NCBI RefSeq assembly: GCF_001306055.1
Contig: NZ_LGHJ01000011.1
Coordinates: 30,001-62,000, forward strand
Source: Bellilinea caldifistulae
Lineage (GTDB): Bacteria; Chloroflexota; Anaerolineae; Anaerolineales; Anaerolineaceae
Length of the DNA: 32,000 nt
Reading direction: 5' to 3'
A program made the translations under genes and the position numbers. The notes beneath the pieces are model-generated. The model had not been told where the DNA came from. It searched no databases and saw only the letters and a program-made list of their open reading frames with translations. Positions 8,382 through 31,253 of the stretch are shown here, in pieces; positions within the stretch are counted from its first letter, which is position 1, and each line of letters starts with the position of its first letter.

Positions 8382-8421
8382 AAAAAAATCATGACCGCCT
8401 GCTCATCTCGCGCAGGCGGTC
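8382..8421 (-). terminator. Rho-independent terminator ending the long minus-strand operon
   Basis: Perfect 10-bp GC-rich stem: GACCGCCTGC (8393-8402) with GCAGGCGGTC (8412-8421), 9-nt loop. On the minus strand it is followed by a T7 run (A7 at 8382-8388 on +). It sits 32 nt after the stop of the last operon gene. Confidence 0.7.
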
Positions 8422-8452
8422 TGTTTGGCTCGCTTCGGCACGCATACGGCGG

Positions 8453-8677
8453 TTACTTGATCCATTGGTCGAGCCGTCTGTCCAGCGCATACTGCCCGCT
8501 GCCGATGTACACCGCCGTCCAGATGAGACGGACAATGAACACGACAGCGAACAGCACCGCCACCACCAGCAGGACGGTATCCACAGCGGCGGTGTCCAGA
8601 CCCAAGAGGGTCTCAAAGTCCACCCCCGCCAGATACAACCCCGCTCCGGCCAACAGGAACAAAATCAAGTGTTTCAT
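8453..8677 (-). CDS. Small membrane protein (74 aa), last gene of the operon
   Basis: The internal ATG at 8677 has a strong SD (AAGGAGAG) ~6 nt upstream. Product: MKHLILFLLAGAGLYLAGV...VLLVVAVLFAVVFIVRLIW (two hydrophobic helices). The longer 122-aa version in the ORF track has an Arg/Ala-rich, non-protein-like N-terminus. Confidence 0.6.
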   Translation of the reverse strand: MKHLILFLLAGAGLYLAGVDFETLLGLDTAAVDTVLLVVAVLFAVVFIVRLIWTAVYIGSGQYALDRRLDQWIK

Positions 8678-8916
8678 GGCTGCTCTCCTTTTCGAGTGGT
8701 TTTTTGGGCTGACTGCCCTCTGACCGCCCACCCTCACGGATGAGCAGACAGAGAAGGCAGCCAGCCGCCACCCGTCCCGGCACACTGCGGGTAAGCGTGC
8801 CAGCAGAGGGAGAGCAGCCACTCCCGCCGTATTCGCCTGTCAACGAGCCACCCGGAGACCAGGAACGGGCTGATCCCCGGACGGGGAAGGGGGACGCTTC
8901 CCCCACCCCCGTCCGC

Positions 8917-10185
8917 TTACCAGCGTTCCAGCCACAACGATTCTGCCGGGGTGATGTCCACCATCTTGCGTAACTCGTCCCCGATGAAACTGAGCGACTT
9001 CAAGTCGGTGGCCACCCCGCCCAGCCGCTCCGCCTTGCAGTCCCGCACCAGTTTCTCCCGTCCCTCTTCGTTCGCCGCACACAAGGCCACCCTGCCATCG
9101 TTCAACTCGGCCAGGTTCTTCCACTTCCTGCGGCTGCCATCGCCACGCTCGACCTCGACATACCAGCGCTCGCCGTCCCGCTCCACCTGCAAGTCGGGCC
9201 GCGCAGCCCCTTCCACCTGCGGCAATATCACGGCGTCCCAGCCGCGCAGCCGGGCGTGCAGCGCAAAGGCCAGCGCCATGACGCTGTGCGCTTCCTGCGC
9301 CGCCCCCTGGTGCAGCCGTAACAGCCGCTCCCATTCGCTTTCCACGACCTGCCAGCCCCACAGGGCGCACAGGGCCTTGCCGTCTTCGGACAGCCGATAA
9401 ACCGCCAGCCCGGTCTCGAACGGTTTGTACATGCGGATGTTGTCGCTCACCAGCAGGCCGCTTTTCACCAGATCGTCCACCGGACGGCGTACCGAGTTCG
9501 TCCGCTCGGACAACCCCTCGACCACGCTCACCACCCGGTCGATCTCCATCCGGCTGCTGATGCCCCCTCTCGCCACCGCATACAGCACCAGCACCTTGCG
9601 CCGGTAGCGGATGCCCGATTCTTTCGGTTTCAACTGCGCCTTGAAGCGTTCCGGTGCGGGCGGAACGACCATCCCGCTCATCTCCTCGACCAACTTGCGC
9701 CACAGTTCGGGCAGTTCGGCAGGGGTGAGGATGCGCCCGGCTGGCCGTTTGGCTTCGCCCTTCTGCTTCGGCTTTTCCTTCGCCTTCGCCTCATCCAGCC
9801 GTTGCTGCAACTCCTCGCGGGCGCGGCGTTCCTGCGCCGCTTCCATCTGCGCCCGTTCCAGCCGCTCCCGCAGGGTGGTCAATTCGCCTTCCAGTTGCAC
9901 GATGCGCCGTTCCAGCGTTTCATACCCGTTGCCCTTCGGCTTCGTCCAGCCGCTGCCCGTCCCCACGCTGACGCCGTTCCAGAACGCCGTCCAGTCCGCC
10001 GCCGTCCAGACCTGCGGTATGGCGGGGTTGTCCCGCCTGCGGGCTTCCAACGCTTCCCCTGCCAAACGCTGGGCCAGTTCCAGCACCAGCGCCCGGTATT
10101 CCCGTGCCACCCGCTCGGCGTTCTGGCGCAGTTCCCGCTCGGCGTTCAGGATGTCCTCCAACGCCCGCTCACGGTAGGCTTCCAC
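8917..10185 (-). CDS. Coiled-coil + winged-HTH + PD-(D/E)xK-like nuclease-fold protein (Replic_Relax-like); paralogue of 30432-31202
   Basis: GTG start at 10185 with GGAGGTGA 5 nt upstream. The N-terminal ~170 aa are heptad-like and charged (LEGELTTLRERLERAQMEAAQERRAREELQQRLDEAKAKEK). The C-terminal half aligns with the 30432-31202 product, including SEWERLL..H..EAH..FALHARLRGW..PDLQVERDGERWYVEVE (PD...E-x-E/K-like core) and the identical end LWLERW. Confidence 0.8.
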   Translation of the reverse strand: MEAYRERALEDILNAERELRQNAERVAREYRALVLELAQRLAGEALEARRRDNPAIPQVWTAADWTAFWNGVSVGTGSGWTKPKGNGYETLERRIVQLEGELTTLRERLERAQMEAAQERRAREELQQRLDEAKAKEKPKQKGEAKRPAGRILTPAELPELWRKLVEEMSGMVVPPAPERFKAQLKPKESGIRYRRKVLVLYAVARGGISSRMEIDRVVSVVEGLSERTNSVRRPVDDLVKSGLLVSDNIRMYKPFETGLAVYRLSEDGKALCALWGWQVVESEWERLLRLHQGAAQEAHSVMALAFALHARLRGWDAVILPQVEGAARPDLQVERDGERWYVEVERGDGSRRKWKNLAELNDGRVALCAANEEGREKLVRDCKAERLGGVATDLKSLSFIGDELRKMVDITPAESLWLERW

Positions 10186-10609
10186 CGCTCACCTCCGCTA
10201 CCCTGCGGCTGGCTTCCGCCACCGCTTCTACTGCCCGCTCCCGGCTGTCGCCCATCGCCCAATTCCGCAGGGCTTGCGCGGCAGCCGCGACCGCTTCCCG
10301 CTGTGGCTGCAAGACGGCCTGCCCGCCTTTTGCCATCTCGTTCAGGATGCGGTCTGCCGCTACCTGCACCCGCAAGGGGTCGAGCGGCTTGTCCAGCAAC
10401 GCCGCCATCTCCTCGCAGGTCTTTTGCAAATCCCGCAGTTCCTGGCGGTAGGCGCGCTCGGCCTTGTGAATCTGCCACTCTGCGTAGGTCAGGACTTTGC
10501 CGCCTTCCGGCGTGAACAGCCAGCCCAGCACGCCCAGCAGTATCAGGACATTCACGGCCACGATAGCGGCCACAACCGAAAACTCTCTCGCGTCAATCTC
10601 GATCTCCAA
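10169..10609 (-). CDS. Membrane-anchored hypothetical protein (N-terminal TM, helical ectodomain or cytoplasmic domain)
   Basis: TTG start at 10609 with GGAG ~6 nt upstream. TM segment VVAAIVAVNVLILLGVLGWLF. The 3' end overlaps the next gene's start by 17 nt. Confidence 0.6.
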   Translation of the reverse strand: MEIEIDAREFSVVAAIVAVNVLILLGVLGWLFTPEGGKVLTYAEWQIHKAERAYRQELRDLQKTCEEMAALLDKPLDPLRVQVAADRILNEMAKGGQAVLQPQREAVAAAAQALRNWAMGDSRERAVEAVAEASRRVAEVSGGSLP

Positions 10610-10676
10610 ACCTCGCTCCTTTCTGCCCGTGCCGTGGGGCAGGCGTTCGGCCTGTGCCTTGCGCCTGCCTGCTGCC

Positions 10677-10805
10677 CTACCAGGTCAGCCCGGCGACCAT
10701 CTGGTACACCAGCACCAAGACCCGTTTGGCCAGCAGATTTCCCACGAACAGGGCGGCTGCCACCTGGATGGCAGACAGCCACAAATTGACGGCTGCACTC
10801 CTCAT
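10677..10805 (-). CDS. Small hydrophobic protein (42 aa)
   Basis: ATG at 10805 is preceded by AAAGGAGG 7 nt upstream. Product: MRSAAVNLWLSAIQVAAALFVGNLLAKRVLVLVYQMVAGLTW. The 67-aa version in the ORF track lacks an SD. Confidence 0.45.
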   Translation of the reverse strand: MRSAAVNLWLSAIQVAAALFVGNLLAKRVLVLVYQMVAGLTW

Positions 10806-10885
10806 AGGGCGGAGACCTCCTTTCGCCGAATCTGGATCTCCGCACCCTCGTGAGCTTGGCAGACCCCAGGCATCCGTCAAACTCC

Positions 10886-11326
10886 CTAACGCCGGTTGAC
10901 CCGCATCTCCGACACCGCCACCACATGCACATTCAAAGTTGGCGATGAGGGGATGAGCAGTTTCAGCCCGGCGCTGGCCGTGCAGCGCGCCACCGTTGGC
11001 GATAACAGCGATATGCCGGTCAGGGCAGGTGAATAGCCGACAATGCCCTTGTTGGCCACCGTCCCGCTGAACGCCTGCGCCGCATAAGACGCACCCAGCC
11101 CCAGATTGATTTGCCGTGCGCCGGTTCGGACAAAGGTGGGCGTATCCAATGCCTGCGCCGCTGCCTCACAGGCGGCATCCGCCGCCGCCTGCAATTGGGC
11201 ATGCAGATACAACGCCCGCACGATGTCCACCGTCAGCACCGCCAGCGGGATGACCACGAAGGTCAGCACGATCACGAAATAGGCCATTGTCTGCCCGCGT
11301 TCGCCGTTGCGGAATGTCCGTTTCAT
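10886..11326 (-). CDS. TadE/TadG-like pseudopilin
   Basis: The N-terminus ..RNGERGQTMAYFVIVLTFVVIPLAVLTVDIVRAL.. fits the TadE/G-like N-terminal hydrophobic helix. ATG at 11326 has GGAAGG 9 nt upstream (alternative ATG at 11335). It directly follows a TadE-like gene. Confidence 0.7.
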   Translation of the reverse strand: MKRTFRNGERGQTMAYFVIVLTFVVIPLAVLTVDIVRALYLHAQLQAAADAACEAAAQALDTPTFVRTGARQINLGLGASYAAQAFSGTVANKGIVGYSPALTGISLLSPTVARCTASAGLKLLIPSSPTLNVHVVAVSEMRVNRR

Positions 11327-11328
11327 GC

Positions 11329-11733
11329 CTACCATCCTTCCTGCCGGAAGGTGGCCTGCGCCTGACCCTTGAACTCCACCGCTCCGCCACCGCCCAGCAG
11401 TCCCAGCATCGAGCCGATGTAATTGGGGGCCGTCCAGTTCACCGTGACCACCACCAGCGAACCGGGACGCCCGCCGCCCGAAGCGGCTACCGAGTAATCC
11501 CCAATCATCGTCCGCGACAGTGCACTGTGGGCAGCGGAAGCCGCAGCCGCCGCTGCCCCGCCCTGCGTGACCGAGCCGACCCGTGCGCCGTAATTGGCGG
11601 CATTGGCCGCCGCTACGGACGCATACCCGGCAATGGCGAAGTTGATCAGCGCAAAGGTCAAGACCAGCACCACCGGCAGCGATACGGCGGTCTCCGCCAT
11701 CGCATTCCCAGCCTCATGCCGTCTTTTGACCAT
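11329..11733 (-). CDS. tadE: TadE-like pseudopilin
   Basis: Product begins MVKRRHEAG/NAMAETAVSLPVVLVLTFALINFAIAGY. This has the G-x4-E processing motif followed by a hydrophobic helix, as in TadE-family proteins. GGAGG lies 6 nt upstream of ATG 11733. Confidence 0.8.
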   Translation of the reverse strand: MVKRRHEAGNAMAETAVSLPVVLVLTFALINFAIAGYASVAAANAANYGARVGSVTQGGAAAAAASAAHSALSRTMIGDYSVAASGGGRPGSLVVVTVNWTAPNYIGSMLGLLGGGGAVEFKGQAQATFRQEGW

Positions 11734-11746: not shown

Positions 11747-11908
11747 CTAGATACCGCTGGCAACCTGCATGATTTTGCCCAGAATGTTGATGCCCAAGGC
11801 CTGGAAGCCTGCCAGGGCCACCAGCAGGATCAGCGCACCGACTACGGCGTACTCGCCCATGTCGTTCGCCTCACGGCTCAGCAAGAACAGTTTGATTTTC
11901 TCGAACAT
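11747..11908 (-). CDS. flp: Flp-family type IVb pilin (53 aa), absent from the ORF track
   Basis: Hand translation of the minus strand gives MFEKIKLFLLSREANDMGEYAVVGALILLVALAGFQALGINILGKIMQVASGI*. It has a short charged leader, G-EY and a ~20-aa hydrophobic stretch. GGGAGG lies 7 nt upstream. The gene sits between the prepilin peptidase and tadE genes, the canonical position. Confidence 0.8.
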   Translation of the reverse strand: MFEKIKLFLLSREANDMGEYAVVGALILLVALAGFQALGINILGKIMQVASGI

Positions 11909-11911: not shown

Positions 11912-12319
11912 TTAACCTCCCGAAATGATTTGAACTGGAATGGATAGAAACGCACCTGCTGCAAACACGGGCACTGCCGGAAAGCGTGCATCTTTCCCGT
12001 GACGCAGCCACAATCCCGCTCCGACCAGCAGCCGAAGCACCAGCGCAATCAGAAAACCTGCGGGCATGAACACCGCCATCGTTGCTAAAACCTTCCCGTC
12101 CGCTCCGCCTGTACCTCCTTTCCAGAACGAAAAGAACATGACCACGAACACCAACCCGAACAACCAGAGGGTGATTCCACCCTGCCGTACCGCCCACAAT
12201 CCTGCCAGCACAAAGGGGGGAATGGTCAGGATGTTCGGCACGCTGCGGGTGCGAATGTCGTACACCGCACAGACCACCAGCCAAACCATCACCGCTCCGG
12301 TAACCAGCCATGCCGTCAT
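11912..12319 (-). CDS. tadV: A24-family prepilin peptidase (TadV/CpaA type, no methyltransferase domain)
   Basis: Polytopic membrane protein with the two aspartate motifs AVYDIRTRSVPN and GGADGK (canonical GxGDxK). Start ATG 12319 forms an ATGA overlap with the upstream stop. Confidence 0.85.
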   Translation of the reverse strand: MTAWLVTGAVMVWLVVCAVYDIRTRSVPNILTIPPFVLAGLWAVRQGGITLWLFGLVFVVMFFSFWKGGTGGADGKVLATMAVFMPAGFLIALVLRLLVGAGLWLRHGKDARFPAVPVFAAGAFLSIPVQIISGG

Positions 12320-12861
12320 TTCTTCTCCGCCAGAGGGACACGGTAGAAATACAGCCGCTTGGGTTCGCCCCAATTGACGCCCAGCGCCTTACCCACCTGA
12401 CCGGCTTCGATGTCGAACCACTCCCCGGCGTTCAGGATCGAGCGTTCCTCCACCTGCACCTTGCCGGGATTGCGCCCCAGAAGCGGGTCAACCAGGTTGG
12501 CCACCTTGCCGTTTTTGGCTTCCAGCGGCTTCAACAGCCGTTTCAGCCGGTCGGGTGAGAAGGGCGAGACCACCAGCCGGGTGGCATTGTCGGTCAAGAA
12601 CGAAACCGCCAGAGCCTCACCCTGCACCCGCTCCACCCCGGTCAGGGTCAGGTCAAGGTGCTGCCCCAGCCAGGCCAGCGGATTGTCCACCCTGACCGCC
12701 TGGCGCTGCTTCTCCCGCTTTTCGGCAACCTGCATCAGATACCAGTCGCTCAACACCTGCTCCATCTCCCGCAGGGCGGACGCCTGACGGGAGTTGTACA
12801 GGGTGAGGATGGCACCCAGCATCAGCACGGCTGCCAGTGTCGCTGCTGCCCATAAGTCCAT
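12316..12861 (-). CDS. Membrane-anchored hypothetical protein (181 aa)
   Basis: ATG at 12861 overlaps the TAA of the upstream adhesin gene by 1 nt. N-terminal TM LWAAATLAAVLMLGAILTLY. The upstream part of the 445-aa ORF-track entry overlaps the adhesin gene and is Arg/Gly/Pro-rich, so it is treated as a shadow ORF. Confidence 0.65.
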   Translation of the reverse strand: MDLWAAATLAAVLMLGAILTLYNSRQASALREMEQVLSDWYLMQVAEKREKQRQAVRVDNPLAWLGQHLDLTLTGVERVQGEALAVSFLTDNATRLVVSPFSPDRLKRLLKPLEAKNGKVANLVDPLLGRNPGKVQVEERSILNAGEWFDIEAGQVGKALGVNWGEPKRLYFYRVPLAEKK

Positions 12862-15800
12862 TACTTCACCTCCTGCAAGTCTTTGATTCGTTCCATGCGC
12901 TCCGCCAGTTTGCGAATCGCTTTGGGTCGTTCGTCTCTCATCGCCGAGTAGCCCAGTGCCGCCGCCAGCCCGATGAGGGTCAGGAACGGCCACAAGGCCC
13001 GCCGCACCACCTCTACCGCCGCCTGCACCTCGATTTTGGGCGGCTTGACCGCCACAGTCGGCTGCGGGGTCGGCAACACCACACTCACCGCCGGGGGTGT
13101 ACGGGTCGGTTCTTCCCGTTCTTCTTCGGTTGGCGTTTGGGTCGGCGTAGCCGTGGGGGTCGGCGTGGCCGTTGGCAGGACGGCAATCACCAGCGGCTTT
13201 GTGGCAGTCGCTTCTTCCCGTTCCTCCGCCGTTGGCGTGGGTGTGGGAGCGGGGATAATCACCGTCCCGCTCGCCGTAACCGTGCGGCCTGCGATGTCCG
13301 TGACCTGCACGGTCACGGGGTACTGTCCCGGCACGGCTTGCGTGCCGTCTGGGAACTTGCCGTCCCACTGCACCGGATTGGGGATGTCCTCGATACTGTC
13401 CCCGCACCATTCCACCTTGCGGCTTTCGTCTGCCGGGTCTTGAATCGTCAGGCAGACCTGACGGATGGGCAGATCGCCGGGGGTAATGCTGACCTGCCCG
13501 CTTTCGCTGATGACCCACAGGCGGGTTATCTCCGCCGCAGGCAGGGCGTTGCTGACCAGCACATCCACGCCGGTGGTGTAGGTGTTGCCCGCTTTGTCCG
13601 TCAGGCGCAGGTACAGGCGTTTGTATCCGCCGCCGGTCTGGGTGGTGTCCCACGCATACGCCCAGCGGTCAGCGGCAAAGGGTATTTCCTGCCACTGATA
13701 GCCCATTGAGAACGAGATTTCCAGCCGCAGTAGTCCCGATAGCGCATCGGACGCATCACCCGCCAGTTCTACCGTCCCGGAGAGCAGTTCGGGCAGGGCT
13801 TCGAAGCCGCCCTGCGGCGGGGTCAGGTCAATCCCGAACGAACGCCGGATTTCCGTCACCCATCCGGCCTTGTCCTCTACCTCACCGATGACGGTATGCC
13901 AGCCTTCTGCCTCGTAGGTCTCATTTGCAGAGAGAATACCAAGACCTTGCGATTGCCCTATGCGTGCCTCCGCCAGGCCCGAAACGGCGTCCTCGCCGGT
14001 GATACTCACCTCCACCGCACTGCGGTACCAGCCCTCGACACCCGCCTCACCGGATAGGGTCATCGCTCCCACCGGCGGGGTGGTGTCCACCCGCACGGTG
14101 GCCGCCTGCGTGCTTTGGTTGCCCGCCTCATCCACCGCCCGGATGAGGACACTATGAACACCGTCCGAGAGGGTGAGATTTGGCTGCCCATTTACTTCCA
14201 CCAGCACAATTCCGCTGGTGGCATCGCTGGCCACCCCGCTCACCTCGACATCACTACGGTACCAGCCGTTGTTACCGGCTGTACCGGTCACATCCAGCCC
14301 GTTGATCGTGGGGGGTGTGGCATCCCGCCGCACGGTTGCGGTTGCCGTCTGGCTGTTCCCGGCGTTGTCCGTCACCCGCACCGTGACGGTATGCGTTCCG
14401 TCTGCGGATACGGTCAGGCCGTTCGGCTGCCATGCGCCGCTGCCCAGCCGGGCTTCCCGGCTGGCCACCCCGCTGGTAGCATCCGTACCCTGCGCCGTAA
14501 CCGCCACATCCGAGACATACCAGCCGTTCTGTCCATCCACCGGCGGGAGGGAGAGGCTGGCGGTTGGGGGCGTGGTGTCCACCCGCACGGTACTGCTGAC
14601 TGTGCTTGACCAGTGACCGGCGTTATCCTGCGCCCGTCCCTCTACCGTGTGAACGCCGTCCGTGCCAATCACGGCACTGCTCTGCCACGCCCCGCCGTTC
14701 AGCCGCACCTGGCTGATGGCCACCCCGCTGGTGGCGTCCGTTCCACCGGCGGAGACGGTGGGGTTGCTGGTAAACCAGTCGTTCTGCCCGTTGGGTGTGG
14801 GGATATTCAGGCTGGCCACCGGCGGAACGGTATCACGGCGAATCGTGGCGGCTATCGTGTTGGAGTAATTACCCGCTACATCGGCGGTTCTGGCGTTGAT
14901 ACTGTGAACCCCATCGGTTGTAATCGTGACCGGCGAATTGACCCATGAGCCGGTGTTTACTCTGATGATTGCATGAGAAAAGCCCGAACCCGGCGCAGGG
15001 TCGCTGCCGCTGGCACTCACGGTTACATTGCCGATATACCAGATACCGTTGATGGTCGGGCCGCTTTCGTTCAAACTTACCGAAGGCGGCACGCTGTCAA
15101 TGCGAAGCGTAATGCTGTCGCTGGCCGTGTTGCCCGCCACATCACTAACAGTGGCGGTTACGCTAGTCGTCCCTTGTGTCGTGATATTACAGGGATTGCT
15201 GCCGCAGGAAAGCGTCAGTCCCGCCACCCCGCTGGTGTCATCGTAAGCAAGCACATTCAACACAACAGGGCTGCGATACCAGTCCTGCTCGCCGGGCGTC
15301 CCCGAAGGATTGAAATTAATCCACGGGGCAACGCTGTCTTTACGCACCGTCACGCTGGTAGTGCTGGTATTACCCGCCCAATCCTGCGCCACCAGGTCAA
15401 TCTGGGTTATCCCGTCTGCGCTGATCGTGCAGGGGATTGAAATACACTCTAAACTGCCCGGCCCGCTGGCAGCGGCGTTGTTCAAACTATACAGGCCGGA
15501 GACTACATCGCTGGCAGTGGCACTCACGGTCACATTGCTGCGGTACCAGCCGTTCTGCCCCGCCGTTCCGCTCAATGACGGCGTGATGGACGGCGCACCC
15601 GAATCGAACTTGTAAGCCAGGCTGTTCTTGGCGCTGGTATCCCCGTAACTGGACACCGCCCAGTACCAGAACGTCCCCTGTCCCTGCGGCGGCGTAAAGC
15701 TGCAAGACGCTCCGCTGCACGACACCGCCGCCTCGTTCCCACCGGTGTAATTGCCTTCCATGCGGGTAATCGAGTAGCCGCTGACCGGCTCACTCCCGCT

Positions 15801-16302: not shown

Positions 16303-16875
16303 TTACCAGACGAACGGCAGCAGCCGCCAGCGTACCCGCTGACCGTAGTCGGCGTAGCCGTCCAGAATGCGCTCTTCCCAGCCAATCCGCAGGACGAAAA
16401 CAAAGACGATTGCACAGAATAAAAGACCGTTCCATGCGTTCAGGTTGGAGAGCGTGACCGCACCGAACGAAAGCAACTCCCCGGCATACATCGGATGGCG
16501 GATGAAGCGGTACGCCCCGCCCACCACCAGCCCCCTGTCCGCCGGGGCAATCCCGAAACTCTGTCCCAGAGACGCCAGTCCCCACAGCGAAAACACCACC
16601 CCGCCAAAAGCCACAACCAGCCAGATGTTTTCCTGCGCCGCAGGCTGCAAGCCGAACGGCAAGACCGCCGCAAGCCAGGCGGTCAGTTTGCGGGTCAGGT
16701 TTGCCCCGCTCTTCTCCGCCCGGCGGGTCAGGAACAGGAAGGCCGCCAGCCCGGACTGCACCGCCAGTGGCAAAGCCATCCACGACCCTGCCGTGACCTG
16801 CGCCAGCCGGATGCCCAGCAAGAGGGCAAACACCACTGCGCCAATCCAGTCCCCGGCCTTCCAGCGTCTCCACAT
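16303..16875 (-). CDS. Isoprenylcysteine carboxyl methyltransferase (ICMT)/phospholipid methyltransferase-family membrane protein
   Basis: Multi-TM protein with the family signature GAYRFIRHPMYAGELL...EERIL. GAGGTG SD lies 5 nt upstream of ATG 16875. The overlapping 229-aa ORF in another frame is Gly/Arg-rich. Confidence 0.85.
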   Translation of the reverse strand: MWRRWKAGDWIGAVVFALLLGIRLAQVTAGSWMALPLAVQSGLAAFLFLTRRAEKSGANLTRKLTAWLAAVLPFGLQPAAQENIWLVVAFGGVVFSLWGLASLGQSFGIAPADRGLVVGGAYRFIRHPMYAGELLSFGAVTLSNLNAWNGLLFCAIVFVFVLRIGWEERILDGYADYGQRVRWRLLPFVW

Positions 16876-25895: not shown

Positions 25896-25898
25896 CCC

Positions 25899-26498
25899 TT
25901 ACCTCCGCTCCCATTCAAGGTTGTATAACCGTCCACTCCGTTTCTCCTCTTTGAGAAAGATGGTCGTCAGCCGCGCTTGCGGAGGTATGATTTCCGTGAC
26001 GATCTCATCCACCAGACGGTATTCCCGCGCTTGTTCCGGCAAAAGCGTCACCGTGCGGGACAAATCCGCCTCGACTTTTTCCAGCGTCTGGCCGGTTGAC
26101 TCGGCCAGCACCCGACAGATATTGCGCTGGTCGCTTTCCAGTTCGGTCAGGATGTTCCGCAACTGGTCGCCGGTGTAATTGCCCTCTTCCAGATGGGTTC
26201 GGATACCGTGTAGTAAAAAGCGCGTTTGCGGCGCAGCCAGCCGCCTTTTCCCGGCGCAGTACAACACCACCCCTATTGAATCCACTTGACCGATGTTGTA
26301 TGTCCACACTTCTATCGGCAGCCCCCTCATCAAGGCGTACAGCGTCAGGCCGTATGAAACCGATCCGCCCGGTGTGGAAAGCAGCAAATGCAACCGCTCC
26401 ACCCCTTCCAGTACGGCGTTTTGGAAAATCTCCACCAATAGTCCAAAACTCTCGCCGTTCACCGCTGAAAGAAACTGAATCCAGCGCTCTCCTCTCAT
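25899..26498 (-). CDS. ClpP/crotonase-fold serine peptidase (ClpP- or SDH-like)
   Basis: Aligns by eye to E. coli ClpP: LLLSTPGGSVSYGLTLYALM with YINSPGGVITAGMSIYDTM; IGQVDSIGVVLYCAG with MGQAASMGAFLLTAG (nucleophile Ser); and TRFLLHGI with SRVMIHQP (His). C-terminal EYRLVDEIV matches EYGLVDSIL. Confidence 0.8.
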   Translation of the reverse strand: MRGERWIQFLSAVNGESFGLLVEIFQNAVLEGVERLHLLLSTPGGSVSYGLTLYALMRGLPIEVWTYNIGQVDSIGVVLYCAGKRRLAAPQTRFLLHGIRTHLEEGNYTGDQLRNILTELESDQRNICRVLAESTGQTLEKVEADLSRTVTLLPEQAREYRLVDEIVTEIIPPQARLTTIFLKEEKRSGRLYNLEWERR

Positions 26499-26501
26499 CC
26501 C

Positions 26502-27065
26502 TTACCTCCGCTCCCTTGCCCGCTCGATGACCGTGCGGGGGTCTGCCCCGGTTGGAGCGTGCGCCAGCAGGTTCTTGATCAGCAGCCCTGCCTGCACTAC
26601 CGGCATCCCCCACAGCGCAAAGCCCGCCAGCACCGCCAGATAATTCACCCCGGCGATGAGATTGTCCGCCGCTTGGTTGTCCAATGCCCAGAACAACACC
26701 CGTGCGCCCAGTCCCACCAGGGCGTACAGGATGAGGTTCTGAATCGTCTCCCACGCCGATTCGTCCGGGCGGTAGTTGTCCACCCGCATCACGAAGCCGC
26801 CCACTCCCGCCAGCCCTGCCATGAGGTAAGGGGCAGGGTTAGGCGCAATGAGCGCCGCCGCCAGTGCCAGCCCGCCGGCGGGCAGCAGCACCTGCCGCAT
26901 CCGCCGCGCCTGCGCTTCCTGCAAACGCTGACCCAGCAGCAGGTACAGCCACACCAGCGCCGGGATGAGCAGCACCAGCGCAAGGTTGTCCACTGCCAGC
27001 CAGACCAGCGCCAGCAGGCCGTTCAAGACCCACACCAAAGGCAAAAGCAGCGTGTCCGGACTCAT
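26502..27065 (-). CDS. Polytopic membrane protein (187 aa), unknown family
   Basis: Five to six hydrophobic helices (LLLPLVWVLNGLLALVWLAV, LALVLLIPALVWLYLLL, LALAAALIAPNPAPYLMAGLAGVGGFVM, ...). Tight spacing to both neighbours. Confidence 0.7.
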   Translation of the reverse strand: MSPDTLLLPLVWVLNGLLALVWLAVDNLALVLLIPALVWLYLLLGQRLQEAQARRMRQVLLPAGGLALAAALIAPNPAPYLMAGLAGVGGFVMRVDNYRPDESAWETIQNLILYALVGLGARVLFWALDNQAADNLIAGVNYLAVLAGFALWGMPVVQAGLLIKNLLAHAPTGADPRTVIERARERR

Positions 27066-27074: not shown

Positions 27075-28427
27075 TTACTTGATGATGGTGGTCATCATCA
27101 GGTAGGCGTCAAATTCGCCTGCCGGTATCTGGAACGAACGGGACTGTGATACCGGCGTGCCGCTGGTAATGCCCGAAAGTGTCATGGCGTAAAAGCCGGG
27201 GTCACGAATCTGCACCTTTTCCTGTACCAGCGTCCAGCGGAAGGTGTTGGACGCATCGCAGCCCTGACTGGTGGCATAGCGCCAGTTCCAGTCCGGGCGG
27301 ATGAGGGTTGCCCCCGGATACCACTGGGCCAGGTCGTTCAAAATCCAGTCCCGGCTGGACTTTTTCAGGCTCGCCGAAGCCAGCACCCGCGCCTGTTCGC
27401 AGAAGGTCTGTTCGTGCAGGACGCAGTACTCGACTTCTTCCTCTTCCTCGACATACCGGTTGGGGGCTTTGCAGTTGTCCTTGATGGGCGGCGGCAGTTC
27501 CACAAGGCTGCCGTTGGGGGCGATACAGCGTTTGTTGACCTCTTTGCGTTCTTCCAGCGTGTAGTAGCGGAAGATGGTCGGCTCGATGGTCAGGCTGAAT
27601 TGCAAATCCACCCCGCGCTTCTCCGGGTCTTGGCCGGTCACGATGGCGTAATTGGGGGCGGTCTTGACCGCCGTGCCGCTGATCCTGCCCTGCGTTACGC
27701 TCGGCGCACCGCATTTCTGCACCACCCTGTCCGGCGTGGGTGTCCTGCCGGGGATGTTGCCGTCCGGACACAGGGACGGCGGACATTGCCCCCGCCGCCG
27801 CAGTTCGTCTAGCAGGGCCTGCGGACAGCCGGTCGGCGAGTTCTGGCAGGATGAGTACAGCAGCATTACCCGGTAGAAGTTGTTGTCCTGGTTTGCAGCA
27901 CGCCTCAGAATGTCAAAGAGATTCCACGCATCGCTTTCTTTCAACACAGACCAGGCGTCTTTGCCCTGAATGATCGCATCCGCCAACTCTCTGGCGTAGG
28001 GCAGGTTCAGGACTTGCAGGACGGCGGCAATCACATCTCTGCCGCTCATGTTGCCCCCAACGATGTCGCCAACCCCCCAGATTGCATACCCCAGTCCTGT
28101 CCCCACCGAACCGTCCGAATTGACCAACCCCGATTCACGCGGGTTCATCGCCATGAAGAACAGGGTCGTGGCCGATGGCAGCAAGACGCTCTCCCCGCTC
28201 GGCAGGGCGTACATATGGTAGGTCGCTGCCCCGTCATAAATCCAGTCCGGTACCCACGCAGGCGCATCCGGCATCCAGTCCGCCGGAACTTTCTGCTCAC
28301 CCAAATCCACCACGCCCGCTTTGAGGTTGCCGTTTTCGTCAAAGAAGTCGCCCCAATCGGCTCTGGCGGGTTGAATGTTCACCGCCAACAGAACGAACAA
28401 GAGGACTGCGTACATCACCCGCTTCAT
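27075..28427 (-). CDS. Secreted Cys-rich protein (450 aa), unknown family
   Basis: Sec-type signal MKRVMYAVLLFVLLAVNIQPARA/DW. About 12 cysteines, several in close pairs (CQNSPTGC, CPPSLC). ATG 28427 forms an ATGA overlap with the upstream stop. Confidence 0.75.
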   Translation of the reverse strand: MKRVMYAVLLFVLLAVNIQPARADWGDFFDENGNLKAGVVDLGEQKVPADWMPDAPAWVPDWIYDGAATYHMYALPSGESVLLPSATTLFFMAMNPRESGLVNSDGSVGTGLGYAIWGVGDIVGGNMSGRDVIAAVLQVLNLPYARELADAIIQGKDAWSVLKESDAWNLFDILRRAANQDNNFYRVMLLYSSCQNSPTGCPQALLDELRRRGQCPPSLCPDGNIPGRTPTPDRVVQKCGAPSVTQGRISGTAVKTAPNYAIVTGQDPEKRGVDLQFSLTIEPTIFRYYTLEERKEVNKRCIAPNGSLVELPPPIKDNCKAPNRYVEEEEEVEYCVLHEQTFCEQARVLASASLKKSSRDWILNDLAQWYPGATLIRPDWNWRYATSQGCDASNTFRWTLVQEKVQIRDPGFYAMTLSGITSGTPVSQSRSFQIPAGEFDAYLMMTTIIK

Positions 28428-28933
28428 GGCTCAGCCTCCAACGCCTGCAATTCCTGCTCGAACAGAAAATGGTCGAATTTCCATTCGCCGTTCTCTCGCA
28501 CCACCAGTACCGGTATCTCGCCCCCTTTTTCCTCGCCGGTGTTCAGGTCTCGGATCGTCCCCGTGACCATCCACACCTGCCGCTCGCCCAAATCCTTACG
28601 CAGTTCCGCCGACTGCACCCGGTACTCGCTGCGCGCTTTGGTCTCCACCACCCTGTCCCAATTGGTGAACAGTTCGGCGAAGGCACAGCCGTTCTCGGTG
28701 GCCACCGCACACACCGATTGCAGCCAGGCATCGTAGCCGGTGGTCACATCCACCGAAAACAACGCCGTGAGACCGGCGATGGCGGCTTCCCGTCCGTCCG
28801 GGACGGGGGTGGGTTCGGGTTCTGCCTGGGCGGTAGTGAACATCGGCAGGATAAACCGCACGGCGGCAATTGCCGCAAAGACCACCAGCAGGATGACTAA
28901 CCCTCTTTTGACGGTTGACAGTTTGATTTCCAC
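28424..28933 (-). CDS. N-terminally membrane-anchored protein (169 aa), first gene of the operon
   Basis: GTG 28933 with GGAGG 6 nt upstream. TM LVILLVVFAAIAAVRFILPMF, then a P/E linker (AEPEPTPVPDG) and a ~120-aa globular domain. Confidence 0.7.
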   Translation of the reverse strand: MEIKLSTVKRGLVILLVVFAAIAAVRFILPMFTTAQAEPEPTPVPDGREAAIAGLTALFSVDVTTGYDAWLQSVCAVATENGCAFAELFTNWDRVVETKARSEYRVQSAELRKDLGERQVWMVTGTIRDLNTGEEKGGEIPVLVVRENGEWKFDHFLFEQELQALEAEP

Positions 28934-29058: not shown

Positions 29059-29087
29059 ATTCTACAAAGTTATTTTTCCGTTCGCAA
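29059..29087 (-). promoter_or_regulatory. Sigma70-like promoter candidate for the long operon
   Basis: The minus strand reads TTGCGA (29087-29082), 17 nt, then TAGAAT (29064-29059). It lies in the only sizeable AT-richer intergenic gap (28934-29121) upstream of the operon. Confidence 0.45.
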
Positions 29088-29121: not shown

Positions 29122-29691
29122 TCAGGGGGTTTCCGCCGGTCTTTGCGGCGGCGGTAACTGGCACGGACGCCCTAACGCCGTTACCCAATACCACCATGAC
29201 TCGTTCTCGATTTGCCACCACCAGGCATCCAGAAACAGCAACTCGTCCGGTGCAATGATGCCCTTTGCCCCACGAATCCACGACTCGGCTTCTGCCGTGC
29301 CGGGCTGGGTGCGTACCACAAACACTCGCAGGAAGGGAATAACAATTTGGCGGACTGGCACAAAAATAATTGTGCCGCTGCAAACATTCTTGCCCTCAAA
29401 GTTTTGCTCGTCAATCTTCTCCCACCCGGCGAAGCGGTCTTGCCAGAACTCCCGGAAGGTCATCCCTTCCGGCGGCAGTGTCCTGGCAAAGCGCGGGTCA
29501 ATCTGCATCGGTTGATTGGCCTTGACGGCGTAGAAGTACCACCCCACCCCGCCAGCCGCCAGCACCAACACCAGCGCGGCGATTATTGTCACCCGCAGCA
29601 CCACCTCAAAAACCAACAGCAGCGCCTTGAACGGCAAGGCTACCAGGTTGCGGGCTGCCAGTTTCAACCCTTTGCGTGTGATGGCCGCCAT
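29122..29691 (-). CDS. Membrane-anchored Trp-rich hypothetical protein (189 aa)
   Basis: ATG 29691 lies 5 nt after the vapC stop. TM region LLLVFEVVLRVTIIAALVLVLAAGGVGWYFY. The C-terminal domain has LDAWWWQIENESWWYW. Confidence 0.6.
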   Translation of the reverse strand: MAAITRKGLKLAARNLVALPFKALLLVFEVVLRVTIIAALVLVLAAGGVGWYFYAVKANQPMQIDPRFARTLPPEGMTFREFWQDRFAGWEKIDEQNFEGKNVCSGTIIFVPVRQIVIPFLRVFVVRTQPGTAEAESWIRGAKGIIAPDELLFLDAWWWQIENESWWYWVTALGRPCQLPPPQRPAETP

Positions 29692-29696
29692 AGACC

Positions 29697-30128
29697 TCAC
29701 ACCCCCCCAATCCAGTGCGCCCACCCCGCCCCCTGCGCTTGCAACGCATTGACCAGCCGCTGGTCGGCGCTCCACAACTCCGCTCCGTACTGCTCCGCCA
29801 CTGCCGCATACTGGGCATCGTAGGCTTTGCTCTGTCCCAACCGCTCCGCCCAGCGCAGCGAGGATTTCAGCAAAGCAGGGGTCGGCTCCACCAGCCGCAC
29901 CCCCATTTCTGGCAGAATGTCCACCAACAAGTCGGCATCCTTCGGGGCCAGTTTGCGTTTGAACACGGCAAAGCGCAGGGCTGACACCACCTCGGCGTAC
30001 CAGTGCGCCGGTGCGTACAACACTTCACCGCTGGACTTCCAGTCGTCCAGACATCGCTCCGCCTGAACCGAGTAATCTTGAGTCAGCAGGACATTGACCA
30101 CAACGCTGGCATCTACGACAATCCCCAT
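29697..30128 (-). CDS. vapC: PIN-domain ribonuclease toxin VapC
   Basis: MGIVVDASVVV.. (first acidic residue), ..APAHWYAEVVSAL.. (Glu), ..AYDAQYAAVAEQYGAELWSADQRL (conserved Asp residues). ~143 aa, overlapping a preceding RHH antitoxin gene. Confidence 0.9.
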   Translation of the reverse strand: MGIVVDASVVVNVLLTQDYSVQAERCLDDWKSSGEVLYAPAHWYAEVVSALRFAVFKRKLAPKDADLLVDILPEMGVRLVEPTPALLKSSLRWAERLGQSKAYDAQYAAVAEQYGAELWSADQRLVNALQAQGAGWAHWIGGV

Positions 30129-30406
30129 TTCTCCTCCTGCTCCCGCTCGTATTCCTCACGCACATCCCGCAGAATGTCACCCTCATACACGCCATATTGA
30201 GCAGCAGTGCGTTCGCGAATTTCCCGCAACTTTGCCAGCGTGCGGCGGAATTGTTCACTCTCCGCCCGGCGCTGTTCTTCCAGATAGCGGCGCACCAATT
30301 CCCGCAGGATTTCAGACACGCTCTTGCCCTGTTCCTGAGCAATCTCGTGCAGTTCCAACTGGTCACTTTTGTCCAACATCACTTGCACTCGAATCAGTTC
30401 GGCCAT
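30113..30406 (-). CDS. vapB: Ribbon-helix-helix (CopG/VapB-type) antitoxin
   Basis: ATG 30406 with GAGGTG SD. The N-terminus MAELIRVQVMLDKSDQLELHEIAQEQGKSVSEILRELVRRYL fits a beta-strand/helix/helix pattern. It has an acidic C-terminal tail and overlaps vapC by 16 nt. Confidence 0.8.
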   Translation of the reverse strand: MAELIRVQVMLDKSDQLELHEIAQEQGKSVSEILRELVRRYLEEQRRAESEQFRRTLAKLREIRERTAAQYGVYEGDILRDVREEYEREQEEKWGLS

Positions 30407-30416
30407 CTCACACCTC

Positions 30417-30440
30417 GTTGTGTATAGAGTATTACACAAC
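30417..30440. promoter_or_regulatory. Palindromic operator candidate upstream of vapB
   Basis: GTTGTGTA-TAGAGTAT-TACACAAC is an 8-bp perfect inverted repeat with an 8-nt AT-rich spacer. It abuts the vapB SD and spans the stop codon of the upstream gene. Confidence 0.4.
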
Positions 30441-31202
30441 AAGGATTTTGTCAAGCCCCTGCCCGCGGTTCCAGCGTTCCAGCCACAGGTCGCTGTCCGG
30501 CTGCTTTGCCAGCGTGGTCAGTTCGGTGGCCACCCCCGCAAAGCGGGGTTTGAGATAGCGCAGGATACCCTGCATCCGTTTGGGTGTCAGGGTGCATACT
30601 GCCACCCGCCGCTGGAAGTTGTACTGATTGATCCACTTCCGCACCCATGTGTTATCCGCCCCGTCCCTGCGTTTGCGGGGATGGCGCAGGGTCTCCACCT
30701 CGACATAAATCCGCTCGCCGTCCTTCTCGACCAGCACATCCGGCTCTACCAGCGGATTGTCCACCGCTGGACAGACTTCCACCCGCCAGCCCCGCCTGCG
30801 GGCGTGGTAGGCAAACAGCAGGATGGCAAAAGCATGATTGGCGTGTTCTTCGGCGTTGTGTTTTTGGGTAAGAATGTCCCACTCTGACCGGCGGATGGGA
30901 CAACCCAGTTCTGCGGCAAACACCACACCGCTGTCGGTCAGGCGCAGGATAGCGTATTTTGTTTGACCGCTTCTGAAAAATAGCCGTTCCGCCAAATTCT
31001 GCTCAACCAGCAAGTCGAACAACCGCTTTGCCGAACCACCGTAGATACCCAATCGCTGCTCGACCTCTACTTGCAAACAAACCCCCTCTGCCAAGATTTG
31101 CACGGCGGTTTCCATCCGCCGCCATAATTCAATCCGAATCGCCCTTACCCGTTCCATAAGCACATTTTGACCATGAATTTTACAAAATCTTATCCGTACC
31201 AT
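30432..31202 (-). CDS. Winged-HTH + PD-(D/E)xK-like nuclease-fold protein (Replic_Relax-like); paralogue of the C-terminal half of 8917-10185
   Basis: Shares SEWDIL..H..EHANH..FAYHARRRGW..PDVLVEKDGERIYVEVE...GVATELTTL...LWLERW with the other paralogue. The start is uncertain: ATG 31202 lies inside an inverted-repeat arm, and the alternative is ATG 31157 (MERVRAIR..). Confidence 0.8.
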   Translation of the reverse strand: MVRIRFCKIHGQNVLMERVRAIRIELWRRMETAVQILAEGVCLQVEVEQRLGIYGGSAKRLFDLLVEQNLAERLFFRSGQTKYAILRLTDSGVVFAAELGCPIRRSEWDILTQKHNAEEHANHAFAILLFAYHARRRGWRVEVCPAVDNPLVEPDVLVEKDGERIYVEVETLRHPRKRRDGADNTWVRKWINQYNFQRRVAVCTLTPKRMQGILRYLKPRFAGVATELTTLAKQPDSDLWLERWNRGQGLDKILVV

Positions 31203-31253
31203 TCATGTGGCACCCCCCTATATTTTTCTGGCACAATGGTACGGATAAGATTT
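31185..31253. repeat. Perfect 19-bp inverted repeat with 31-nt spacer
   Basis: AAATCTTATCCGTACCATT (31185-31203) and AATGGTACGGATAAGATTT (31235-31253) are exact reverse complements. The spacer contains C6 and TATATTTTT. It lies between the WGR gene stop and the wHTH-nuclease gene start. Confidence 0.9.

Follow-up and report, generated by a model that had tools for sequence, protein, structure and literature searches.

Streptomyces TraB, a hexamer of the FtsK superfamily, moves double-stranded DNA without a relaxase, and its integrative elements use a tyrosine integrase at tRNA genes. Tad pili, in turn, are of archaeal origin. The filamentous Anaerolineae, members of the Chloroflexota, are dominant in anaerobic digesters, sediments, and hot-spring mats, and to our knowledge almost nothing is known about DNA exchange in the Chloroflexota. 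Here, we analyzed a stretch of 32,000 nucleotides (nt) from the anaerolinean Bellilinea caldifistulae (RefSeq assembly GCF_001306055.1, contig NZ_LGHJ01000011.1, positions 30,001 to 62,000 of the forward strand), hereafter the window, in which the genes of a Tad/Flp pilus share one operon with a large ATPase whose modeled core falls in the HerA/VirB4/DndH clade of the FtsK-HerA superfamily.

Among the closest described systems, the thaumarchaeal integrative and conjugative elements (ICEs) carry VirB4/VirD4 together with TadC, FlaI, a prepilin peptidase, and pilins; they have no relaxase, are often found at tRNA genes, and are suspected of transferring double-stranded DNA (PMC6563490). In Thermus thermophilus, DNA donation depends on ICETh1, whose HerA-like hexameric ATPase TdtA drives it (PMC5365140), and CedB/CedD of the Sulfolobales act with Ups type IV pili (bioRxiv 10.1101/2024.09.27.615246). 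The B. caldifistulae locus pairs pilus genes with a putative FtsK-HerA-superfamily ATPase, here within a single bacterial operon.

Results

An operon joining Tad/Flp genes with a large ATPase

Genes were called from a six-frame list of open reading frames (ORFs), a frame plot of GC content at third codon positions (GC3), and a choice of starts guided by Shine-Dalgarno sequences. Coordinates are window positions, and every gene, promoter, and terminator located between 8382 and 31980 is on the minus strand. Loci and contigs compared from relatives are labeled L001, L002, and so on: L001 is Anaerolinea thermophila UNI-1, L002 is Bellilinea sp., L004 and L035 are A. thermolimosa, L005 and L086 are Thermanaerothrix daxensis, and L084 is B. 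caldifistulae DNA around the gene up154. The original prediction, made from the letters of the window, was of 25 consecutive minus-strand ORFs with tight junctions at nearly every step. As seen, the co-directional chain from 28933 down to 8453 is real, with frames backed by the GC3 analysis, but it comprises 23 supported genes, two of the called ORFs being frame artifacts. Eighteen of the 22 junctions overlap or leave a gap of at most 14 nt; the four larger ones measure 115 nt (from the methyltransferase gene to the Ig-repeat gene), 80 and 67 nt (flanking the small ORF s42), and 239 nt (from nucP1 to tm74). All operon ORFs are intact in the B. caldifistulae copy.

The promoter-like site and the strong terminator proposed for this operon were both recovered, and they bracket the 23-gene chain. 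The former (29059..29087) is a sigma-70-like site, TTGCGA-17-TAGAAT, which scores 9/12 as a consensus match only and lies in the 188-nt gap upstream of the first gene, g1. The latter (8382..8421) is an intrinsic terminator in which GACCGCCTGC, a 9-nt loop, and GCAGGCGGTC form a hairpin with a 10-bp GC stem (dG -25.9, z -4.3), followed by T7. The block is also more GC rich than the neighboring rhs gene, as had been predicted (0.60 to 0.67 versus 0.50 to 0.62); GC content is 0.40 to 0.47 between 5 and 8.3 kb, and it drops from about 0.65 to about 0.40 at the terminator. An Rfam scan over the whole window gave no match.

The 1124-amino-acid (aa) ATPase (22521..25895) consists of an N-domain (residues 1 to 230), a linker rich in Ser, Thr, and Gly (approximately 231 to 523), and a putative HerA/VirB4-clade ATPase domain (525 to 1124). 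It belongs to the NCBIfam family NF033849, "serine-rich protein" (ser_rich_anae_1; 1187.4 bits versus a cutoff of 650), a name that carries no function. In alignments of 16 and 46 homologues, the Walker A residues G704/G706/K707, the Walker B residues E977/E978, and an R1010-D-x-R-K-Y motif are invariant. An AlphaFold2 (AF2) model built from the 46-sequence alignment was confident for residues 1 to 230 and 525 to 1124 and not for 231 to 523. When the C-terminal half was compared with the PDB by Foldseek, it matched HerA-NurA (3.4e-12), DndH (1e-11; TMt of 0.72 for the C-domain), Sulfolobus solfataricus HerA (5.6e-11), VirB4 (4ag5; 8.4e-9, TMt of 0.65), and R388 TrwK (1.4e-8), with SIR2-HerA, HerA-DUF4297, and TdpAB/TdpA also among the matches; HerA matched better than VirB4. 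Based on this model, the ATPase core is a member of the HerA/VirB4/DndH clade, suggesting that the DNA-translocase-type ATPase of the original prediction was correctly placed in a superfamily of nucleic-acid and substrate translocases. Membership of HerA itself failed at the sequence level (DUF87, 18.3 bits, below 23.2; NCBIfam HerA models, 17 to 23 bits versus 800 to 970), there was no VirB4 Pfam match, and the NCBIfam model of CedD matched weakly (23.6 bits versus a cutoff of 600). No NurA-type nuclease adjoins the ATPase gene.

The insert between the two confident parts varies from 193 to 398 residues among homologues, is approximately 50% Ser/Thr/Gly, and shows a two-residue Ser/Thr periodicity, its autocorrelation being positive at even lags. 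In the AF2 model, it takes the form of a very long beta-hairpin, drawn with low confidence. Profile comparison with the PDB returned marginal matches in this region to the binding components of binary toxins (Iota toxin Ib and CdtB).

A canonical Tad set had been proposed downstream of the ATPase, and most of it was identified with Pfam: CpaB/RcpC (21240..22079; PF16976, 2.8e-13; SAF, 4.5e-9), a TadZ/CpaE-like ParA/MinD ATPase with a refined start (19933..21225; PF01656, 3.4e-8; also PF13614), the TadA/CpaF secretion ATPase (18685..19929; PF00437, 5.6e-27), the TadC platform protein (16885..17748; PF00482, 1.2e-6), the TadV prepilin peptidase (11912..12319; PF01478, 1e-10), the pseudopilin TadE (11329..11733; PF07811, 3.7e-7), and a TadE/TadG-like pseudopilin (10886..11335; PF13400, 2.6e-7). 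TadB and Flp, for which the profiles gave no match, were assigned only by position, size, transmembrane (TM) pattern, and synteny. The TadB-like platform protein (17750..18682; no Pfam match) has four TM segments and lies between TadA and TadC in all loci. The Flp-type pilin candidate of 53 aa (11747..11908) lies between TadV and TadE and has one hydrophobic segment and an "...MG/EYAVV..." motif, the EY spacing of which is atypical for the G/XXXXEY processing motif. It is 63 to 67% identical in T. daxensis (L005) and L032, and it matched no family, PF04964 included, in a Pfam-wide scan at an E value of ≤0.1. As predicted, no secretin, TadD, or RcpB was found among the scanned ORFs; the absence of a secretin and TadD is expected of a monoderm-type Tad system, and horizontal transfer of Tad loci is frequent (PMC6668835).

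Conservation of the ATPase with Tad genes among relatives

Homologues of the ATPase number in the hundreds, and every named one is from the Chloroflexota. The monoderm, Chloroflexota-like host that had been expected is borne out by B. caldifistulae, of the Anaerolineae. One scan of species-representative genomes identified 118 ATPase loci in Anaerolineae, Caldilineae, and Thermoflexus-like metagenome-assembled genomes (MAGs), with 2 to 4 copies in some genomes. Synteny was read from a tblastn matrix, in which ATPase identity across loci ranges from 33 to 90%. TadA is present in 54 of the 61 loci that have at least 5 kb downstream of the ATPase homologue, and in 58 of 66 loci, the gene directly upstream of the ATPase gene encodes the membrane protein g3. 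The seven loci without TadA include one with a divergent T2SSE and two TadZ-like genes, one with a TadZ-like gene, and one with a group II intron disruption. The upstream genes g1 and g2 and the run ICMT-Ig protein-u181-TadV-Flp-TadE-TadG-u146-nucP1 recur in large subsets. Overall, the Tad operon and the HerA/VirB4-clade ATPase module form a conserved, lineage-specific fusion, and this finding is solid. The co-occurrence with Tad genes that had been anticipated for the unusual members of the operon therefore holds for the ATPase and g3, in part for nucP, which is found in a subset of loci, and not for the ClpP-like peptidase gene.

A recent exchange between Bellilinea and A. thermolimosa was also considered from the 91 to 93% amino acid identity of TadZ and TadA; it was dropped, the nucleotide identity being only 75 to 81%.

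Mobile-element context

Next to the window, the 10 kb past its right edge (L084) encodes, on the operon strand, an HTH_17/MerR-like protein, SSB, two ParA-like proteins, a replication initiator (an O/DnaD-like protein; PHROG, 9e-15), and PDDEXK_3, followed by up154, a WGR protein, nucP2, and vapBC. In A. thermophila (L001), T. daxensis (L005), L007, L035, L047, and L088, a tyrosine integrase gene lies between PDDEXK_3 and up154, and an FtsK_SpoIIIE gene is found in L088 and L098. The HTH_17 gene is the first gene after a tRNA-Lys gene (L088), a tRNA-Asn gene (L092, L098, and L101), a tRNA-Pro gene (L094), or a tRNA-Cys gene (L032), and in L088 ordinary metabolic genes occupy the far side of the tRNA. 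At the other end, the T. daxensis element runs from nucP1 through a small membrane protein and Rad52 to an integrase, directly after which 48 nt repeat the 3' half of tRNA-Lys(UUU) exactly. This copy (L086, approximately 14382 to 14429) covers the anticodon stem through the acceptor end; a full tRNA is absent from the site, and the arrangement reads as the classical signature of tRNA-gene integration. In L089, the element ends with nucP1-SWIM-SSB-CoiA_N-integrase. We also observed tRNA-like 3' fragments after the integrase in L090 and L091 and near the integrase in L089. A metagenome contig (L093, 1 to 7657) carries, on one strand, TadE...u146-nucP1-Rad52-HTH_17-p67; such an order would join the distal and proximal element ends, as expected of an excised circle or a tandem array.

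Further comparisons point in the same direction. A. thermophila UNI-1 (L001, 4025 to 20113) and A. thermolimosa IMO-1 (L035, 4025 to 20073) share 16 kb at 96% identity overall, with 100%-identical blocks of 7.5, 1, and 2.5 kb and interleaved segments of 70 to 86% that cover CpaB-TadZ-TadA. These blocks would indicate recent interspecies exchange and recombination, unless they are an assembly artifact. In Bellilinea sp., L032, and L007, the cluster is 8 to 12 GC points above its flanks. In addition, the maintenance module is a mosaic: up154, SSB, and PDDEXK_3 reach 93 to 99% identity in L092 (95% for up154), and up154 is again at 95% in L088, where the ATPase on the same contig is only about 51% identical. 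Hence, the maintenance and apparatus modules recombine independently of each other. The tRNA-adjacent starts, integrases, 48-nt tRNA-Lys repeat, and identical blocks of the relatives bear out the horizontally acquired island of the original prediction, and these comparisons make it a solid prediction that the module is carried by tRNA-integrating elements.

For the B. caldifistulae copy, the expectation of mobility genes beyond the right edge was borne out in part: the maintenance module is present, but no integrase lies in those 10 kb, and integrases and tRNA/att sequences are found only in the related elements. No Rad52, tRNA-like fragment (a T-arm-like att remnant), or integrase was found in the window, and no FtsK remnant was found in L084. 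The copy may be decayed or domesticated, perhaps no longer mobile; either the element is bounded differently from its relatives, or its distal end was lost and the rest was retained for the pilus.

Two side observations concern these contigs. L084 has a 940-N gap between vapC and tm189 in the public scaffold (12274 to 13213); since the window is continuous there, it stems from another assembly of this organism or from one in which the gap was closed. L105 and L106, which are Thermanaerothrix-like, hold another SSB-bearing element with its own SAF-ParA-T2SSE (Tad-like) genes, a methylase, Toprim, and HEPN/NTase pairs. Mobile elements that carry Tad-type genes may be frequent in that lineage.

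nucP proteins and the region just upstream of the operon

The penultimate operon gene, nucP1 (8917..10185), is 100% identical to BECAL_03406 of B. caldifistulae. Its model (AF2 pLDDT, 89.9) shows a long coiled coil, a PadR-like winged helix-turn-helix (wHTH), and an alpha/beta domain resembling PD-(D/E)xK nucleases. A short paralogue (32% identity to nucP1; E value, 2e-26), nucP2 (30432..31202; wHTH plus PD-(D/E)xK-like), lies upstream of the operon and aligns with the conserved PD...EVE...KW motif of the family, which agrees with the coiled-coil, wHTH, and nuclease-fold architecture and the upstream paralogue initially described. Across the family, P330, E344, K354, and W355 are invariant, and D331 and E346 occur in at least 90% of sequences. 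Foldseek matches of nucP1 were weak (best E value, 3.8e-3) and consistently of the wHTH plus PD-(D/E)xK type (VC1899, Bax1, FokI, R2 endonuclease, AF1548, and Can2), with weak matches to PadR-type regulators as well. Two family members matched an AHJR-like restriction endonuclease family weakly (0.0098), and a family profile search of the PDB gave coiled-coil noise only. The assignment of both proteins to the Replic_Relax family was rejected: PF13814 gave no match at an E value of ≤1 and was not among the 25 families listed for 28 scanned family members. Because of this missing match, the fold matches, and the conserved residues, we place nucP outside Replic_Relax, and by their models nucP1 and nucP2 are predicted DNA-binding, nuclease-fold proteins.

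We also observed that L087 (8520 to 11763), a MAG contig with an 85%-identical nucP1, carries u146-nucP1-tm74 without a Tad operon, preceded by an IS605-type TnpB and sugar-metabolism genes. Hence, the nuclease module can be uncoupled from the Tad genes.

The vapBC pair, the 19-bp inverted repeat, and the WGR protein that had been noticed beside nucP2 were all recovered. The start of nucP2 is spanned by a perfect 19-bp inverted repeat with a 31-nt spacer (31185-31203/31235-31253), of which none is expected by chance. In T. daxensis (L005, 5101 to 5172), the repeat is kept, and the substitutions in one arm are matched in the other (GTACCATT/AATGGTAC versus GTAATATT/AATATTAC). We regard it as a likely protein-binding site and a candidate operator or recognition site, with the wHTH-nuclease as its possible binder. 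The VapB-type antitoxin (30113..30406), a 97-aa gene in L084, has a ribbon-helix-helix domain (PF01402, 4.7e-6), and the VapC toxin (29697..30128) has a PIN domain (PF01850, 1.1e-12). tm189 (29122..29691), a membrane protein without an assigned function that is syntenic in L002, L004, L005, and L032, begins 5 nt past vapC, which makes the vapBC-tm189 unit contiguous with the region, although 188 nt separate it from g1. On the other side of nucP2, the WGR-domain protein of 76 aa (31271..31501; PF05406, 4.7e-5, 23.9 bits, above the cutoff of 22) has counterparts in L004 (90%) and L005 (81%). The 154-aa up154 (31516..31980), a conserved element gene found directly downstream of the tyrosine integrase in relatives, had no Pfam, PHROG, or PADLOC match.

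Upstream operon genes and the ClpP-like cassette

The five genes said to precede the Tad set are as originally described: g1 has one TM segment, g2 has 10 Cys residues, g3 has at least four TM segments, and the peptidase (PF00574) and the FtsK-HerA-superfamily ATPase follow. g1 (28424..28933), a bitopic membrane protein of 169 aa with an N-terminal TM segment, precedes g2-g3-ATPase in approximately half of the loci. g2 (27075..28427), a secreted Cys-rich protein of 450 aa with a signal-like N terminus, is likewise syntenic in approximately half of them and had no family match in Pfam, NCBIfam, and PADLOC scans. g3 (26502..27065), a polytopic membrane protein of 187 aa, is the constant upstream partner of the ATPase. 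In topology only, g1 is VirB8-like and g3 is VirB3/6-like.

Between g3 and the ATPase lies a ClpP-fold serine peptidase gene (25899..26498; PF00574, 3.6e-23). In alignments with Clp proteases of the PDB (9uxt), GQVDSIG and LLHG of the peptidase fall on the catalytic Ser and His motifs. It falls below the ClpP equivalog level (best NCBIfam match, 81 bits versus cutoffs of 228 to 361), and the match begins at profile position 45, without the N-terminal axial region. This gene had been counted as part of the proposed module, but it is not a conserved member: it is absent from the three closest relatives, namely, Bellilinea sp. (L002), A. thermolimosa (L004), and T. daxensis (L005), the ATPases of which are 89, 72, and 68% identical, respectively. 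By tblastn, the peptidase is 76 to 78% identical to copies in L001, L035, and L054, where it lies between TadA and TadB, and the other proteins of those A. thermophila-type elements are only 35 to 50% identical. An exact 20-bp direct repeat, GGGAGCGGAGGTAAGGGATG, flanks the gene (26496-26515 and 25893-25912). It duplicates the end of g3, the ribosome-binding site of the ATPase gene, and the start codon, and the peptidase C terminus is the borrowed "...WERR*". Since the repeat brackets the gene and the identity to the A. thermophila-type copies is that high, the ClpP-like gene is, as judged from these sequences, a cassette that was recently inserted and came from an A. thermophila-type element.

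Other operon members and the left flank

Between the ATPase and CpaB are two small genes. s83 (22273..22524) encodes a bitopic membrane protein (60% identical in L002), and its start overlaps the ATPase stop; s66 (22076..22276) encodes a small soluble protein, is called in L085, and is kept in L002 (83%), L004, L005, and L032. The Tad set itself is interrupted, as had been observed, by an ICMT methyltransferase and a 1108-aa adhesin-like protein. The former (16303..16875) is a PEMT/ICMT-family membrane methyltransferase (PF04191, 5e-9; PF04140, 5.4e-6) found at the same position in many loci; a 229-aa frame called over it (16199 to 16888) is spurious. The latter (12861..16187) is a surface protein whose Ig-like repeats match Big_13 (1.6e-30) as well as other repeat families; its N terminus carries a TM segment or signal, and a hydrophobic stretch lies close to its C terminus. 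It is followed by u181 (12316..12861), a bitopic protein without an assigned function that is syntenic 3' of the Ig-repeat gene in many loci.

Between TadG and u146, the ORF called at 10552 to 10932 is in the wrong frame; the true gene is s42 (10677..10805), a hydrophobic 42-aa membrane ORF (MRSAAVNLWLSAIQVAAALFVGNLLAKR...) with 75% identity over 28 aa to a 44-aa gene in T. daxensis (L086). This ORF may encode a membrane component or a minor pilin-like one. In L089, the corresponding position holds a called ORF of 46 aa. The bitopic coiled-coil protein u146 (10169..10609) is always encoded directly upstream of nucP1, and the last gene, tm74 (8453..8677), encodes a small two-TM protein with homologues after nucP1 in L086 and L087.

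Past the terminator, the left flank (4 to 8252) is an rhs polymorphic-toxin locus that encodes a 1692-aa RHS-repeat protein with a CBM60 domain. An orphan rhs tip (5753 to 6604) repeats the core-end motif "...YDYRARFYDPLLG.FIQPDSLVPGAGNPLAWDRYAYTLN". The small ORFs of this flank (GC content, 0.40 to 0.47) had no family match, and three of them lie on the minus strand just past the terminator.

Discussion

We propose that the window covers most of an integrated mobile element of approximately 34 kb, with the block described here as its apparatus half, and that the element is one of a family specific to Anaerolineae, Caldilineae, and related Chloroflexota, in which the pilus and the ATPase would serve DNA transfer; we put the probability of this proposal at about 0.5. 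The combination of Tad pilus and ATPase may be an undescribed machine for pilus-assisted DNA transfer. That DNA is the substrate, and that pilus and ATPase act in one process, is what we infer from the gene content and its conservation. A full element would enter at the 3' half of a tRNA gene, with HTH_17 (excisionase or MerR-like) as its first gene. A maintenance module with SSB, ParA, the replication initiator, and PDDEXK_3, joined in some relatives by FtsK/SpoIIIE and the tyrosine integrase, would come next, then up154, the WGR protein, nucP2, and the toxin-antitoxin pair. The last part would be one operon of g1 to g3 with a putatively hexameric ATPase of the HerA/VirB4 clade, the secretin-less Tad/Flp pilus, the Ig-repeat surface protein, and nucP1. 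In the predicted mechanism, the Tad pilus and the adhesin would draw filaments into contact, and the ATPase would dock on g3/s83 at the membrane beside the Tad platform and pump DNA, probably double stranded, out of or into the cell, akin to Thermus TdtA (ICETh1), Streptomyces TraB, or the CedB/CedD proteins that act with Ups pili. Specific sites, e.g., the conserved palindrome, might be bound and cut by the wHTH-nucleases.

A stronger form of this proposal, which we advance only tentatively and think rather unlikely in its entirety, is that these elements are an unclassified type of bacterial conjugative element. Here, the Tad pilus would provide mating-pair formation, the NF033849 ATPase would move DNA without a relaxase or a canonical type IV secretion system (T4SS), and the conserved Ser/Thr/Gly insert (190 to 400 residues), with its periodicity of two residues, would form a long polar beta-hairpin, a conduit of the hexamer through the multilayered Chloroflexota envelope. 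If true, this would be a new mating-pore architecture and a bacterial counterpart of the archaeal pilus-plus-VirB4 elements, which would fit the archaeal origin of Tad.

Several observations weigh against the mobile DNA-transfer element that we favor. No integrase, FtsK/T4CP, or att remnant occurs in the 42 kb seen of B. caldifistulae (the window plus 10 kb), and where the upstream flank of a locus is complete, roughly two-thirds of the loci have neither an integrase nor a ParA gene within 10 kb. No pair of att direct repeats was recovered for any single element, and a comparison of T. daxensis L005 (1 to 5000) with L086 (11000 to 17000), stretches that do not reach the upstream end, gave nothing of ≥17 bp. 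No relaxase family appeared in any ORF scanned with Pfam, PHROGs, and NCBIfam across the family; VirB3/6 and VirD4 were not recognized either. As for the proteins, at least 12 kb separate nucP from the ATPase, and only some loci showed a nucP gene; the sequence matches of the ATPase to HerA, VirB4, CedD, and the defense HerA proteins span only an approximately 60-residue motif and are far below cutoffs; and the ATPase lacks both a TM segment and a demonstrated DNA-binding module. Finally, the Bellilinea, Anaerolinea, and Thermanaerothrix operons are collinear at 70 to 85% nucleotide identity, which is compatible with long vertical inheritance, and the sole experimental literature on Anaerolineae Tad clusters points to adhesion and aggregation (PMC4877987).

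This last point leads to the alternative that survives best, namely, a colonization island. Here, the Tad pilus would be adhesive or motile and act with the Ig-repeat adhesin, the ATPase with g1 to g3 would be a lineage-specific pilus accessory (e.g., one that energizes the export or the anchoring of some surface component across the multilayered envelope), and the element would be only a carrier, with no passage of DNA. We regard this as a real possibility, at odds clearly below even. Tad loci are classically horizontally transferred adhesion islands, the Flp genes of Anaerolineae are highly transcribed (PMC4877987), and Tad pili have been observed on Litorilinea. The ATPase sits between membrane or secreted proteins and CpaB with no nuclease beside it, and the operon is intact here though the mobility genes seem lost, many other loci also lacking an integrase within 10 kb. 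However, HerA/VirB4/DndH-clade ATPases are, where characterized so far, nucleic-acid translocases (PMC5365140), canonical Tad systems need no such ATPase, and the module travels with SSB, Rad52, CoiA-like, FtsK, and wHTH-nuclease genes.

The same structural matches could suggest defense. The HerA-like ATPase and the PD-(D/E)xK proteins would then form an anti-phage or anti-plasmid HerA-plus-effector system, with the Tad neighborhood being incidental or the system protecting a pilus that serves as a phage receptor. SIR2-HerA, HerA-DUF4297, TdpAB, and DndH are indeed among the top structural matches, PADLOC HerA models match the ATPase locally (best E value, 1.7e-9), and toxin-antitoxin modules, restriction-modification genes, and HEPN/NTase genes surround related elements. 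Nevertheless, the PADLOC and NCBIfam matches cover approximately 60 residues (60 to 100 for PADLOC) and stay far below family cutoffs, and nucP1, nucP2, g1 to g3, and up154 have no PADLOC match. No effector adjoins the ATPase gene, the nuclease genes lie 12 kb off and were not detected in most loci, and the fixed neighbors are membrane proteins and CpaB-TadZ-TadA (54 of 61 loci). Moreover, the extra N-domain and the 190- to 400-aa S/T-rich insert are unknown in defense HerA proteins. We therefore consider defense improbable.

The collinearity of the operons in three genera, at the nucleotide identities given above, would also fit an ordinary, immobile core-genome Tad operon with unrelated insertions as its mobile neighbors, and the pili cluster has been described as conserved in Anaerolineales (PMC4877987). 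This reading is largely refuted, and we give it very little credence: the starts are tRNA adjacent, the 48-nt tRNA-Lys repeat follows an integrase, several copies occur per genome, the flanks differ between Bellilinea sp. (L002) and B. caldifistulae, blocks are 100% identical between species, and the GC excess over the flanks is consistent. An integrated virus-like element, with the ClpP-fold protein in the role of prohead protease and the FtsK-HerA ATPase in that of packaging motor, is the least credible alternative, since weak matches of the peptidase to ClpP-related head-maturation proteases (NCBIfam, 1e-9 to 1e-11) and uninformative BFVD structural matches of the ATPase to large phage ATPases are set against the lack of any capsid, portal, terminase, or tail gene among the scanned ORFs, the absence of the ATPase family from 2.9 million IMG/VR contigs, and a peptidase that is closer to cellular ClpP (7e-23) and is a recent, nonconserved insertion.

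If the proposed DNA-transfer element is real, it would be a concrete candidate for the conjugation or DNA-exchange machinery of the Chloroflexota and would connect bacterial Tad pili, the archaeal pilus-plus-VirB4 elements, and the relaxase-free transfer of double-stranded DNA in Streptomyces and Thermus. The NF033849 "serine-rich protein" family gains a context and a functional hypothesis, and the "conserved pili cluster" invoked for the adhesiveness of Anaerolineae would be, at least in part, mobile DNA. In the open literature, the Anaerolineae and Litorilinea Tad clusters are described without the ATPase, and no report was found that ties Tad systems to HerA-like ATPases or to integrative elements in Chloroflexota. 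ICEs with a type-IV-pilus module and an FtsK-HerA transfer ATPase are known from archaea and Thermus; the present bacterial gene set and ATPase family appear to be undescribed.

Compared with the canonical Tad/Flp "widespread colonization island," the locus has CpaB-TadZ-TadA-TadB-TadC, TadV, Flp, and TadE/G in common, whereas we know of no described Tad locus that includes a HerA/VirB4-clade ATPase with g1 to g3, nor of one in which the operon has the wHTH-nuclease, the Ig-repeat protein, and ICMT as fixed members. The HerA-plus-effector defense systems (SIR2-HerA, HerA-DUF4297, TdpAB, and DndFGH) provide the best structural matches of the ATPase domain, but the present ATPase has no adjacent effector, its local sequence matches are subthreshold, and its context is one of membrane and pilus genes. 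Streptomyces TraB resembles the proposed system in its filamentous multicellular host, tRNA-integrating elements, single FtsK-superfamily hexamer, and lack of a relaxase (PMC5365140). It differs in that TraB has TM segments and a clt-binding wHTH and works with no pilus, while FtsK_SpoIIIE is here a separate gene, seen only in L088 and L098. The Ced/Ups systems also join VirB4/HerA-like ATPases with a polytopic membrane protein and cell-aggregating type IV pili; they are, however, archaeal, chromosomal, and encoded at separate loci, they import DNA for repair, and CedD itself is only distantly matched, as given above.

The element-encoded HerA-like ATPase is shared with ICETh1, where TdtA acts with the product of a nuclease gene and the transfer needs a type-IV-pilus-type machine. 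TdtA is approximately 570 aa long, lies beside a NurA-like nuclease, and uses the chromosomal competence pilus of the recipient, whereas the present ATPase is twice as long, carries the N-domain and the S/T-rich insert, has its own co-operonic Tad pilus, and has no adjacent nuclease. The thaumarchaeal ICEs are likewise integrated and combine FtsK-HerA-superfamily ATPases with type-IV-pilus parts and no recognizable relaxase. They are archaeal, with recognizable VirB4/VirD4 and with VirB3/VirB6 present; the element described here has a bacterial host, a full Tad set with CpaB and TadZ, and a distinct 1100-aa ATPase of the NF033849 family that is closer to HerA.

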